This document shows, piece by piece, positions 2,122 through 6,002 of a DNA stretch of 64,000 bases (position 1 is the first letter of the stretch; the number at the start of each line of letters is the position of its first letter). The notes beneath the pieces were generated by a model, which had not been told where the DNA came from, searched no databases, and worked only from the letters and a program-made list of their open reading frames with translations. Location of the stretch: contig CAZTZR010000003.1 in NCBI GenBank assembly GCA_964618145.1, forward strand, positions 997 through 64,996. The letters run 5' to 3'. The translations under genes were made by a program, and so were the position numbers. This DNA is from an uncultured Kofleriaceae bacterium (GTDB lineage Bacteria > Myxococcota_A > Polyangia > HGW-17).

Positions 2122-2600
2122 ACTGAATCAATCCGGTTCTTCGAAGTCCGCCGGGTTCAGGTGCATCACGAGGACCTCGTGAATCAACTCCAGGGCCCTT
2201 TCCCGCGGAGGAATTCATGAACAAAAGTGCAACCACCAGACGCTGCAGGACCGCCACCAGTTTCCGGATGTCATCGGAATGCAGACCCAGGGTGGGCTCG
2301 TCCAGCAGGAACAGGGTGCGGCCCGTATCCGCCCGGGCCAGTTCCCGGGCCAGTTTGACCCGCTGGGATTCGCCACCGGAAAGAGACGGCGCGGGACGAT
2401 CCAGGGTCAGGTATCCCAATCCCACGGAACCCAGAAGCCGCAACCGGGCCTGGATCTCCCGCAACAGGCCTTCGGCGATGCGCTTTCGCCCTTCATCCAG
2501 ATTCAGGTGGGAGAAGTGCGACAGGCAGGCAAGAACCGTTTGGGCACATACTTCCGGGAGACTTTTCCCTCGTCCTGATGATTGTTGCTGTTGTTAGAAA
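2080..2600. repeat. Degenerate direct-repeat copy of the region 5950-12735: collinear mosaic of six short segments joined at microhomologies
   Basis: By eye, 2124-2184 matches 5998-6058 (2 mismatches). 2185-2212 matches 6376-6412, 2207-2240 matches 6986-7022, 2240-2395 matches 8603-8760, 2395-2575 matches 9775-9960 (about 95% identity), and 2575-2600 matches 12708-12735. Order and orientation are conserved. Confidence 0.8.
2241..2578 (-). pseudogene. uvrA: Chimeric uvrA fragment fusing two ABC signature/Walker B regions from different parts of uvrA
   Basis: ORF 1727..2464 (-) begins [70 protein letters not shown]. This fuses the UvrA mid-region and C-terminal motifs that are found intact in 8424..11234. 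No N-terminus and no Walker A. Confidence 0.8.
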
Positions 2601-2744
2601 ACCTGACCCGGGGCCACCATACAGCAAATCCGGAAAAACCGATATGATTTGCAAAAATATCAGTTGCAAAGGAAGGCGGGACAACCGCATCATGCCGGGA
2701 ACCCGGTCGCCTGGCGTCTGGATGCCTTGCACCGGCGGAGGTTC

Positions 2745-4091
2745 ATGCGTTACACCACAAGCGAGAAGGAAAACATCATCCACAAAAACCGGCATGAATA
2801 CGGCAACCTCAGCCGCTTCATGGAGTTCGTCGATGATGCCGGGGTCATGGAGTTGACCCGGCTGCGCGATGAGTGGGTGGCAAGGCTCAACCGGCTTGGC
2901 GTGGAATACGGTGCCAACGGCACCAAGTTGGATCTGCGCGGACTGAGTCCTGGTTGTCAAATCTGTATGGCGGGGCGATGGAGTTGCCTGTTCGTCAATA
3001 ATTTATGCAACGCCAGGTGTTTCTACTGTCCGTCATCCCAGGATGACCTCTCGGAACCGGCGACCAACCATCTGACGTTTGATGACGCAGGATTCCATGC
3101 CTGCTACCTGAAGCGGTTCGGGTTCACCGGCGCCGCCATCAGTGGGGGCGAGCCGTTCATGTCATTCGAAAGGACACTCGACTACATCACGCGGATCCGG
3201 GAGGTGAACGGAAATGGCTTCCACATCTGGATGTACACCAACGGCATCCTGTCGTCGCCGGAGAAACTCCGCAGGCTTGTGGCTGCGGGACTCAACGAAC
3301 TGCGGTTCGACCTGACCGCAGTGGGGTACCGTGTGGACCAGGCTGCCCGGGCTGTCGGTGTCATCGAGACGGTGGCCGTGGAGGTTCCCGCCATCGAGGG
3401 CGAGATCTCCCAATTGAAGAAGATGGCCGCCGGGTTGGCCGCCGCCGGTGTCGGGCACCTGAACCTGCACCAACTCCGCTGCACGCCCTACAGCGCCGCC
3501 CGCATGATCGAGCGGGGCATCTCCTTTATCCATGCGCCATTCGTGCTTTCGGCCTGGTCCGAGGTGATTGCGCTGGAGGTCATGGCATCCGCGCTGGAAA
3601 GCGGGCTTGACCTTCCTGTGCACTTCTGCTCGTTTCTCTACAAGTATCACAACCAGAATTGTGCCGCCCGAAGGCGCGCCGCGGGTCTGCTCCAGGAGAG
3701 CATCCATTCCGTGACGCCGGCGGGCTATCTGCGCGAGATCACCTCCGATGGTGTGGCCCTGGATGCACTCCAGGTCCGCGGGCGCCCTTTCGAACGACTC
3801 CGGCTCGACTACTTCGAGAGCCGCATTTCCCAGACCCGGGAGGATGGTGGGGCCGAAGTTTTCTCCTGGGCCGATCGGGTGCTCCATGTCCACAAGCGCA
3901 GGGCGCAAAACCCGATCCTTCTGGAGGGGCGCGAGGTGGGCCTGTTCACGGAAGCCTTCCTGAATGACTTTCCCTGGAACAGGGACATGGACCCGGACGA
4001 ACAACTGCACACCCACGGGGACAGCTCCGGGAAGTTCTCCGCCATCAGGGCCATGGAGGTCCTGCCCGAAGGCCTGATCGAGTATTTCTGA
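2745..4091 (+). CDS. Radical SAM domain protein (CxxC plus CxxxCxxC: GCQICMAGRWSCLFVNNLCNARCFYC), first gene of the hgcAB island
   Basis: ORF 2649..4091. Internal ATG 2745 is preceded by GGAGG. Canonical CNARCFYC radical-SAM cysteine triad, followed by a GGEPF glycine-rich SAM motif. Confidence 0.8.
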   Translation: MRYTTSEKENIIHKNRHEYGNLSRFMEFVDDAGVMELTRLRDEWVARLNRLGVEYGANGTKLDLRGLSPGCQICMAGRWSCLFVNNLCNARCFYCPSSQDDLSEPATNHLTFDDAGFHACYLKRFGFTGAAISGGEPFMSFERTLDYITRIREVNGNGFHIWMYTNGILSSPEKLRRLVAAGLNELRFDLTAVGYRVDQAARAVGVIETVAVEVPAIEGEISQLKKMAAGLAAAGVGHLNLHQLRCTPYSAARMIERGISFIHAPFVLSAWSEVIALEVMASALESGLDLPVHFCSFLYKYHNQNCAARRRAAGLLQESIHSVTPAGYLREITSDGVALDALQVRGRPFERLRLDYFESRISQTREDGGAEVFSWADRVLHVHKRRAQNPILLEGREVGLFTEAFLNDFPWNRDMDPDEQLHTHGDSSGKFSAIRAMEVLPEGLIEYF

Positions 4092-4218
4092 ACCCCCAAA
4101 AAACATTTCCCTGGAGGTGGGTTTCTGTCCAATTTGCCCGGCAACCTGCTCATTTCCCTCATTATCAGCGCTGCTCAAATCCAATGATACCATCCCCCGG
4201 TATGGCAAGAATCCATCC

Positions 4219-4233
4219 GGCGACGTCGTCGCC
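4219..4233. promoter_or_regulatory. Perfect 15-bp palindrome GGCGACGTCGTCGCC in the rSAM-hgcA intergenic region; candidate operator
   Basis: Read directly from the sequence. Lies about 320 bp upstream of the hgcA start in a 460-bp non-coding gap. Confidence 0.25.
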
Positions 4234-4550
4234 TCCAACGGGACATCCTTTTGCGGGCGTACCTTGTCGCCGGTCTTGGAAATACATTCAGTTTTCAGGG
4301 ATCAATGGACTTGACCGGCGCAATTCATGGCGCTTGTGCGGGGGCCGGGGTATGCCGCGCAGGCTGCCGCCGCCTGTCCCGGGCCGGCTTCGTTCCGGAA
4401 CATGTTCTGCTTGAAAAAGGTTAATCCCCGGTTTTTCAGGCTGGTCACCTGCCGGTGGCATGGAGTAGGATGCATTCGTTGCAGTTGCTGTCAAGCCGGT
4501 GGATACATCGCAATGAGGCTTCGGTCACACATTTCAGGAAATGATGGATC

Positions 4551-5567
4551 ATGAATACTTCACACATGTTTGACGAGCCGCTGATTGCGGGCGACAGGAC
4601 AGTGCCCAGGCTGAAGACCGGTTGGACTTCTGCGGATCGGCACGGGGCCTTCGCGGTTCGCTGGAACATCGGAAGGATGACGTATCTCGTAGAGCCCGGT
4701 ATCTACGCCATCGGAAGTCCGACGGGAGAATCGCCCGTGCTCGTGACCGCCAACTACAAGCTCACGGTCGACATCGTGCGACGCGATCTCGCCGGGACCG
4801 ATGTATGGCTGCTCGTGCTCGACACGAAAGGCGTGAACGTGTGGTGCGCGGCGGGGAAGGGCACCTTCGGAACGGATGAACTGGTGACGAGGATCGAGGC
4901 CACCCGGATCGGGGAACTGGTCACTCACCGCAAGATCATCCTGCCGCAACTCGGCGCCCCGGGAGTATCCGCCCGGGAGATAAAGCAGAGGTCGGGCTTT
5001 TTGGTGACGTATGGTCCGGTGCGCAGTGCCGATCTTGTGGCGTATCTGTCGGCAGGCTGCCGTGCCGACGAGAAGATGCGTCAGGTCACGTTTGACTTCG
5101 GCGAGCGCATGGCCGTGGTGCCGGTGGAGCTTTCCCAGACGCTGCCCTATCTGGCTGTCACGCTGCTCATCGCGGTGGGCCTGTCGGTTGCCGATTTCAC
5201 GTTGGCGGCGATTTTCCGCGAATATCTGCCCTTTTTGACAGCGATCATCACCGGAGTCCTTTTGTTTCCTGCCTTGCTCCCGGTGCTGCCATTCCGTTCC
5301 TTCGCGCTGGGCGGTGCATTGACGGGTCTGGCCGGCGCGGCCGTACTCTGGCCCGTGCTGTCATGGAACCTCTCCGAGATCATCCGGAACACCACGATCA
5401 TCACTGTGGTGTCTTCGTTTTTCGCACTCAACTTCACCGGCGCATCCACCTTCACCTCGCCTTCGGGGGTGAAGAAGGAACTGGGCCTGGCACTGCCTGT
5501 CATGCTCGCAGTCCTTGGCTCCGGTGTCGCCACCTCGGTGCTTGTCCACCTGCTCAAAGGAGCCTGA
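4551..5567 (+). CDS. hgcA: Mercury methylation corrinoid protein HgcA (CFeSP-like corrinoid domain plus C-terminal transmembrane domain)
   Basis: Diagnostic cap-helix motif GVNVWCAAGKGTFGTDELV. C-terminal part has about 4-5 hydrophobic helices (LAVTLLIAVGLSV..., LLFPALLPVLPF...). Immediately followed by the hgcB ferredoxin. Confidence 0.9.
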   Translation: MNTSHMFDEPLIAGDRTVPRLKTGWTSADRHGAFAVRWNIGRMTYLVEPGIYAIGSPTGESPVLVTANYKLTVDIVRRDLAGTDVWLLVLDTKGVNVWCAAGKGTFGTDELVTRIEATRIGELVTHRKIILPQLGAPGVSAREIKQRSGFLVTYGPVRSADLVAYLSAGCRADEKMRQVTFDFGERMAVVPVELSQTLPYLAVTLLIAVGLSVADFTLAAIFREYLPFLTAIITGVLLFPALLPVLPFRSFALGGALTGLAGAAVLWPVLSWNLSEIIRNTTIITVVSSFFALNFTGASTFTSPSGVKKELGLALPVMLAVLGSGVATSVLVHLLKGA

Positions 5568-5568
5568 A

Positions 5569-5856
5569 ATGCCGCGTGAATACCTGAAGAATGTGACCAC
5601 CGTGAAAGTCGATGCCGAAAAATGCACCGGGTGCGGGCTCTGCGTGGACCTCTGTCCCCATCGTGTGCTCCGGATGGAAGAAGGCAAGGTGGTGGTCCAC
5701 CACCCCGACAAATGCATCGAATGCGGCGCCTGTAGCAAAAACTGTCCCACCGAAGCCGTTTCGGTCCAGGCCGGGGTCGGTTGTGCCTACGCGATGATTG
5801 CAGGGAAACTCCGGGGCAAGGCGCCATGCTGCGGTCCCGGTTCCGGCTGCTGCTGA
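5569..5856 (+). CDS. hgcB: Mercury methylation ferredoxin HgcB (2x[4Fe-4S], C-terminal Cys-Cys)
   Basis: CTGCGLCVDLCP and CIECGACSKNCP motifs. C-terminal tail PCCGPGSGCC. Start is 1 nt after the hgcA stop, with GGAG 7 nt upstream. Confidence 0.9.
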   Translation: MPREYLKNVTTVKVDAEKCTGCGLCVDLCPHRVLRMEEGKVVVHHPDKCIECGACSKNCPTEAVSVQAGVGCAYAMIAGKLRGKAPCCGPGSGCC

Positions 5857-6002
5857 TATGGTATCATTCCCGGCACACTGTTGGGGTCCATGGGTGTGCC
5901 TCATGAAACTCATTACCGATACGTCCAGGCTTTCGCTTTCCAGGAGGGTGTCCTGGGGAGCCATGCACCACCGGTGCCATCGAGAGACGGTAAATCCCTG
6001 AA

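Follow-up and report, generated by a model that had tools for sequence, protein, structure and literature searches.

The known mercury methylation systems closest to the one described here are the HgcA/HgcB pairs of Pseudodesulfovibrio mercurii ND132 and Geobacter sulfurreducens PCA (Parks et al., 2013; PMC11588087): a two-gene arrangement in which HgcA joins a membrane domain to a corrinoid domain whose cap helix reads N(V/I)WCA(A/G)GK, and HgcB carries two [4Fe-4S] clusters, an internal conserved cysteine and a terminal cysteine pair. HgcB reduces the HgcA corrinoid to Co(I), S-adenosylmethionine (SAM) methylates the corrinoid, and the methyl group then passes to Hg(II) (PMC11588087). The hgcAB genes are the accepted genetic marker of microbial methylmercury production, and each confirmed carrier widens the list for mercury-cycling surveys. 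Their patchy distribution has been attributed to repeated gene transfer and loss, by transfer mechanisms that have not been pinned down, and their movement has so far been inferred from phylogenetic incongruence only (PMC7438021). Here we describe a locus with the features of the ND132 and PCA pairs in a 64-kb stretch of DNA (the whole stretch analyzed, called the window below), in which hgcA and hgcB lie downstream of a radical-SAM gene. Compared with known HgcA, the window protein is at most 53% identical and has no Cys-/Sec-rich N-terminal extension; compared with ND132 and PCA, the tail of its HgcB has an extra PCCGP pair, no ArsR-like regulator adjoins the genes, and the host is a member of the Myxococcota.

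We consider it likely (a probability of about 0.8) that the hgcAB pair is genuine, that the radical-SAM gene is not its functional partner, and that the three genes arrived together by an insertion-duplication. Finding hgcAB in Myxococcota is in itself a routine identification of a known system; what this locus adds is an isolated HgcA lineage and a readable scar. The genes concerned, and the gene used to place the host, are as follows (ORF, open reading frame; aa, amino acids; nt, nucleotides).

2600-5950, + strand: stretch filled by three ORFs, the radical-SAM gene, hgcA and hgcB
2649-4091, + strand: ORF of the radical-SAM gene (PF04055), with a likely start at ATG 2745 giving 448 aa, the start used in the gene calls of two public assemblies
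4092-4550, + strand: spacer from the radical-SAM gene to hgcA, 460 nt, non-coding
4551-5567, + strand: hgcA (NF040863), 338 aa, corrinoid domain with cap-helix Cys99 and a C-terminal membrane domain
5569-5856, + strand: hgcB (NF040864, Pfam Fer4 families), 95 aa
48266-50932, minus strand: gyrA

The hgcA-hgcB pair and its host

Both genes were assigned with NCBIfam equivalog models and their curated cut-offs. HgcA scores 398.8 bits against a cut-off of 275 (NF040863, HgcA_corrinoid; residues 18-332 of 338 covered) and HgcB 111.7 bits against 99 (NF040864), and this profile search upholds the names that a preliminary description had given the two genes from the letters of the window. The NVWCAAGK cap helix pointed out there lies at residues 96-103, with the ligand Cys99; it conforms to the N(V/I)WCA(A/G)GK motif, which is invariant in our HgcA alignment (A2), and of the columns that never vary among the 20 diverse HgcA sequences aligned there the protein retains 57/57. 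The C-terminal multi-transmembrane domain that had been claimed is likewise present: residues 194-337 hold four clear hydrophobic segments and a weaker one (194-216, 224-246, 251-271 and 313-335, with the weaker one near 280-300, judged from Kyte-Doolittle hydropathy alone and not with a dedicated topology predictor), and the conserved membrane motif NFTGASTFTSPSGVKKE is kept.

Two related protein types share parts of this architecture. Residues 45-166 are homologous to the corrinoid-binding domain of the large subunit of the corrinoid iron-sulfur protein (CFeSP; AcsC/CdhE, PDB 2h9a and 4djd; E 2.7e-12 for 2h9a; PF03599), which differs from HgcA in carrying a threonine where the cap helix has its cysteine and in having no membrane domain. 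The window protein has that domain, so the worry that it might be a CFeSP-like paralog without one is not borne out; further, it reaches 80 bits on the acetyl-CoA synthase gamma model (NF003195), where the cut-off is 306. The HgcAB-like fusion proteins (NF043039) also combine HgcA-like and ferredoxin-like domains, which in the window are encoded by two separate ORFs; since the hgcA product scores 209.3 bits on that model against a cut-off of 285, it is not a fusion paralog.

HgcB shows both CX2CX2CX3CP motifs (CTGCGLCVDLCP and CIECGACSKNCP) expected of a ferredoxin with two [4Fe-4S] clusters, an internal conserved cysteine at Cys71 (GVGCA) and the C-terminus PCCGPGSGCC, in which the terminal cysteine pair is kept, all in line with its first description. 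Its ATG (5569) follows the hgcA TGA (5565-5567) by 1 nt, as had been stated, and is preceded by an AAGGAG Shine-Dalgarno sequence. Among 80 related loci hgcA is directly followed by hgcB in 74, and the remaining 6 are cut by contig ends. Cys99 of HgcA and Cys71 and the tail cysteines of HgcB match positions that we take to be functionally important from published mutagenesis. They also correspond to positions reported as invariant in the Haft preprint, which for HgcB are residue 73 and the terminal cysteine pair (bioRxiv 10.1101/2022.07.06.499078). We considered and rejected the PCCGPGSGCC tail as a special feature: it falls within the variation of 60 other HgcB tails, and because similar CCGP...CC tails recur at three of the related loci (L118, L125 and L129) it is ordinary variation.

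These features lead us to read 4551-5856 as a genuine, translationally coupled hgcA-hgcB pair that an uncultured member of the Myxococcota carries in its core chromosome. By analogy with the characterized family, corrinoid binding and methylmercury formation are predicted for it. The two [4Fe-4S] clusters of HgcB would reduce the HgcA-bound corrinoid, with Cys99 of the cap helix as its lower axial ligand, to Co(I); the corrinoid would receive a methyl group from SAM (PMC11588087); and at the membrane the methyl would go on to Hg(II), a metal probably held by the cysteines in the HgcB tail.

The surroundings are those of a core chromosome (uvrA, era, der, gyrA; G+C about 0.60). The unnamed relatives of GyrA are 74-86% identical and the named ones, at 53-66%, belong to Myxococcota, Polyangia, Kofleriaceae, Nannocystis and Haliangiales, which agrees with the Myxococcota-like context proposed at the outset. 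The host phylum is not new for hgcA, because Myxococcales/Myxococcota carriers have already been published (PMC7438021, PMC12953829).

What sets the pair apart is how isolated its HgcA is. Across about 15 billion proteins no sequence exceeds 53% identity to it: in a set of 5.8 billion clustered proteins the closest non-self match is 49-53% identical, 591 confirmed matches in JGI metagenomes reach 52% at most, and an exhaustive phmmer search of 1.84 billion representatives gives a top full-length identity of 50-51%. Relatives of the host have been sampled (GyrA 80-86%), yet a similar HgcA comes from none of them. We therefore describe the window HgcA, on these comparisons, as a very isolated Myxococcota lineage (at most 53% identity) that is new here. 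Where primer sets and reference trees rest on known clades, they could overlook or misplace it.

Such divergence raises the question whether the pair is a divergent paralog that no longer methylates Hg(II), or never did, and serves some other corrinoid-dependent role. The distance to the nearest relatives speaks for this when set against the other 119 listed HgcA matches, whose median identity to the nearest neighbor within that small set is 77%, as does the absence of the Cys-rich or selenocysteine-bearing (PCUGP) N-terminal extension carried by many HgcA proteins (bioRxiv 10.1101/2022.07.06.499078). We looked for that extension in frame upstream of ATG 4551 and found none; a TGA stands three codons up (context RK*WI), with a TAA farther up. 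Other accepted HgcA proteins also lack it, however (e.g., P0124 and P0176), and the window HgcA scores more than 120 bits above the equivalog cut-off, stays under that of the HgcAB-like fusion model and keeps its invariant residues, cap helix and membrane motif, while HgcB retains Cys71 and the terminal cysteine pair. We consider a paralog with another role improbable and keep to the reading of a true hgcAB pair.

The extension also varies among the 80 metagenomic hgcAB loci compared (L090-L169). In 9/80 it contains PPC-TGA-GP, with an in-frame TGA, and the HgcB tails at these loci have no CxC pair; L125 and L129 show the same pattern as the window, an HgcA without a Cys-rich extension together with a CCGP...CC tail in HgcB. 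As far as sequence can tell, this suggests that the metal-binding cysteines are distributed between HgcA and HgcB in alternative ways.

The radical-SAM gene upstream of hgcA

The preliminary description had presented a compact three-gene unit and singled out the radical-SAM gene as part of it. Compactness holds for the 1 nt between hgcA and hgcB and fails for the 460-nt spacer that separates the radical-SAM gene from hgcA. The unit stands as exactly one inserted block (see below); as a functional module it is not supported, for the reasons that follow.

A conserved module would show itself as recurrent adjacency, and we found none. The three closest radical-SAM orthologs (68, 65 and 55% identity; the one that is clearly labeled comes from a Myxococcota metagenome-assembled genome, MAG) lie in other neighborhoods with no hgcAB beside them. 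In a survey of 80 loci of the radical-SAM family, with up to 10 kb of flank, hgcAB occurs near a family member at 1/80, in a Syntrophales MAG (L018). From the other side, a member of the family is found at 0/80 of the metagenomic loci closest to the window hgcA, 38 of which offer at least 2 kb of upstream sequence. No conserved neighbor of the family emerged from the surveyed loci, where generic kinases and sigma-54-regulator families alone recur, and gene B, the gene upstream of the block, has no homology to the genes upstream of the radical-SAM orthologs. Further, the 64-kb window contains four radical-SAM genes, so that a radical-SAM neighbor is not improbable by chance. In the Syntrophales locus (L018, 9974-14633) the radical-SAM gene faces, within about 2 kb, a convergent group made up of hgcA, hgcB and a gene of 535 aa.

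The protein itself belongs to a widespread, uncharacterized and stand-alone family, for which GTDB species representatives give at least 557 matches; many of these are from Bacteroidales, others from Desulfobacterota and further groups. It scores 45.4 bits on PF04055 (cut-off 29.5). Its CX3CX2C motif (C88-X3-C92-X2-C95, within CNxRCFYCP) is invariant in the family alignment (A1), in which additional cysteines at 71, 74, 81 and 295 and a C-terminal E..P.G..EYF are conserved as well. Neither a B12-binding (PF02310) nor a SPASM (PF13186) domain was found in it, and SPASM-type NCBIfam models remain far under their cut-offs. Enzymes of the PflA/NrdG/MoaA type share the CX3CX2C motif and a partial TIM-barrel core with it, whereas the window protein differs from them in an N-terminal helical region and a C-terminal beta domain of its own and in the additional conserved cysteines; matches to the MoaA, NrdG and PflA models are sub-threshold only. 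All equivalog scores of the window protein lie far under cut-off; the JGI name is [quoted passage not shown]. An attempt to read a function from structure was given up: the AlphaFold2 (AF2) model is confident, with a pLDDT of 88.4, and the PDB returns generic cores only (NifB, LipA, BioB, SkfB and PflA, TMq ≤0.37).

The spacer (4092-4550) shows no coding signature in any frame, its ORFs have no Pfam match, and no Rfam family reaches its gathering score there (a miRNA match with E = 0.46 is at chance level; the fold z-score is -1.74). We rejected as a gene a 75-aa ORF at 4327-4554 (with a CSCC motif, overlapping the hgcA start as ATGA): its G+C at the three codon positions (GC1/2/3) is 0.54/0.61/0.59, against a GC3 of about 0.76 in real genes, and it matches no family. 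A search for consensus sigma-70 promoters in 2000-6200 and for + strand terminators in the spacer gave none.

It could still be argued that the three genes form one functional operon in which the radical-SAM enzyme matures or assists HgcAB, through a cofactor, a cluster or a SAM-linked step. They share one strand and one inserted block, the spacer has no predicted terminator, the methyl donor of HgcAB is SAM (PMC11588087), and the two kinds of gene come close to each other in one other genome, that of the Syntrophales MAG. Set against this are the length of the spacer, the closest orthologs without hgcAB, the co-localization counts (1/80, convergent, and 0/80), the stand-alone character of a family spread over hundreds of species representatives, the missing B12-binding and SPASM domains and the frequency of radical-SAM genes in the host genome. 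We judge such an operon quite improbable; the comparisons give no evidence of a functional link, and the radical-SAM gene would be a physical passenger of hgcAB. This removes a false lead, for the neighbor is no evidence of a new accessory gene for methylation.

Three observations concern radical-SAM genes of the window without bearing on that question. A tandem 14-nt repeat at 2642-2670 (ATATGATTTGCAAA / ATATCAGTTGCAAA), which precedes the radical-SAM start codon by about 75 nt, could serve as a regulator binding site. Elsewhere, a tandem radical-SAM/SPASM pair lies at 29392-31574 (minus strand), possibly encoding peptide maturases, and a B12-binding radical-SAM protein is encoded at 56379-57899 (minus strand).

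A duplication on both sides of the block

A chromosomal segment occurs in two direct copies, one on each side of the three genes; each copy runs on into one native flank and has lost what the other has kept. The segment, of at least 8.3 kb, runs from gene B through X, an MBOAT gene and uvrA into part of a VWA gene (B-X-MBOAT-uvrA-VWA'), and between its copies lies unique DNA that does not recur elsewhere in the window. Its parts are:

590-2599: left copy, homologous from about 590 on, collapsed except for gene B, which is intact
604-2121, + strand: gene B, a 505-aa beta-helix/choice-of-anchor-Q protein (PF13229, NF041518), intact in the left copy
2086-2599: collapsed left remnants of the B 3' end, X, MBOAT, uvrA and VWA, six collinear pieces (blastn E 3e-96 to 7e-9)
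2086-2183, matching 5955-6058: B 3' end, spacer and X 3' end, 86%
2177-2211, matching 6382-6416: X, 97%
2197-2239, matching 6982-7024: MBOAT, 88%
2229-2383, matching 8599-8753: uvrA, 97%
2361-2570, matching 9748-9957: uvrA, 96%
2571-2599, matching 12705-12733: VWA gene, 28/29, with none expected by chance
2600-5888, + strand: unique insert of 3,289 nt, exactly the radical-SAM gene, hgcA and hgcB
5889-12733: right copy, homologous as far as 12733 within the VWA gene, intact except for gene B, which is collapsed
5889-5990: gene B remnants at the head of the right copy (5889-5943, the B 5' end of 590-643; 5955-5990, the B 3' end of 2086-2121)
6003-6947, minus strand: X, 314 aa, no known family, intact in the right copy
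6959-8377, minus strand: MBOAT acyltransferase, DltB-like (below cut-off), intact in the right copy
8424-11234, minus strand: uvrA, intact in the right copy
11335-12912, minus strand: VWA gene, right copy

Neighboring left remnants share 7-23 nt of microhomology where they overlap, as is typical of microhomology deletions; these took out about 330, 580, 1585, 1017 and 2747 nt between the pieces; the left uvrA remnant still reads as minus-strand UvrA (TIGR00630, 99 bits). In the right copy the gene B remnants are 73-78% identical to the intact gene overall, with a blastn core (5904-5932 against 605-633) at 86%. We read 2600-5888, between two reciprocally decayed direct copies, as the scar of an insertion-duplication, which is new here.

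Which gene survived on which side follows a simple pattern. Only about 14 nt upstream of the gene B start codon are kept in the right copy, and the 5' flank of B is intact in the left copy only; the minus-strand genes of the left copy are cut off from everything to the right of 12733, and their upstream region is kept in the right copy only. The surviving copy of each gene would thus be the one that kept its upstream region, and the reciprocal loss fits promoter logic.

The window comes from metagenome assemblies, and the remnants might in principle be an assembly artifact or a strain chimera. Coverage, judged from the contig name, is about 6x, and the Logan contig that carries the block (SRR5581382_226686, run SRR5581382) is broken by repeats at 2541 and 6040. 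That contig, the product of a separate assembly, nevertheless matches 2541-6040 of the window at 100% and contains all insert junctions, ending within repeats on both sides; it is identical in sequence to the contig of the ENA assembly, where 1-15567 of the window is found at 100%. Moreover, the divergence between remnants and intact copies is 3-27%, the order of the remnants is wholly collinear with the intact segment, and several junctions share merely 7-15 nt, below typical assembler k-mers, so that real reads were needed to join them. To an artifact we give very little credence, and we return to the insertion-duplication as an event in the genome.

Origin of the block

Two routes could have produced the scar. 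A circular molecule carrying the block and a stretch of homology may have integrated by a single crossover (Campbell-type), or the segment may have been duplicated with a templated insert at the junction; in either case each copy would then have lost the genes severed from their upstream regions, through deletions at the 7-23-nt microhomologies. Campbell-type integration gives the arrangement seen here, unique DNA between direct repeats that each run into one native flank. The locus differs from such an integration in carrying no plasmid, phage or integrase genes and in the reciprocal decay of both repeats.

The degree of decay is uneven. Remnants of X, uvrA and VWA diverge by about 3-4% from the intact genes, the short MBOAT piece by 12% and the B remnants by about 22-27%, which would be unexpected for a duplication within one genome and agrees with a related lineage as donor; the unevenness might also come from gene conversion of the longer remnants. 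That the block is a cassette from a related lineage, integrated by a homology-assisted single crossover, is accordingly a tentative proposal that we hold to be possible and on balance doubtful. If true, the locus would be a physically resolved example of hgcAB moving between genomes.

Several points weigh against our overall account. The sequence is known from metagenome assemblies, and the gene B remnants at 5889-5990, short and of low identity, are the weakest part of the map. The block has no features of a mobile island: no integrase or transposase is present among the genes scanned (window 1-31.6 kb), no inverted repeats or att-like repeats were found at the block ends, and the nearest tRNA, at 62490, does not mark it. 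Nor is there a compositional shift (GC3 of 0.71-0.78 in the block and 0.73-0.80 in its neighbors). An exact look-up with proteins X and B for an empty site or an alternative arrangement returned the same contig only. As to the genes themselves, an altered function of HgcA is possible because the protein is unusually divergent, and co-transcription of the radical-SAM gene with hgcAB is possible because no terminator is predicted in the spacer.

A foreign composition of the block was considered and rejected, its codon-position G+C matching that of the host. Together with the missing integrase, transposase, att sites and tRNA, this host-like composition indicates that the three genes already lay side by side in DNA of similar composition when the event took place; for want of the same marks, mechanism and donor are a matter of inference only.

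The insertion-duplication scar matters more for the evolution of hgcAB than for its function: with junctions that can still be read, the block is one concrete case on which ideas about the transfer of these genes can be tested.

Three smaller observations belong to the flanks. Deletions in the decayed left copy have created an in-frame chimeric ORF (1727-2464, minus strand) that joins the middle of UvrA, the UvrA C-terminal part and the MBOAT C-terminus. Public gene calls annotate a 99-aa ORF without a family at 2279-2578 (+ strand), which is probably spurious. Finally, an MBOAT gene and a gene for a 294-aa protein, a few genes from the radical-SAM ortholog at L007/L008, form a pair that resembles the MBOAT-X pair of the window.

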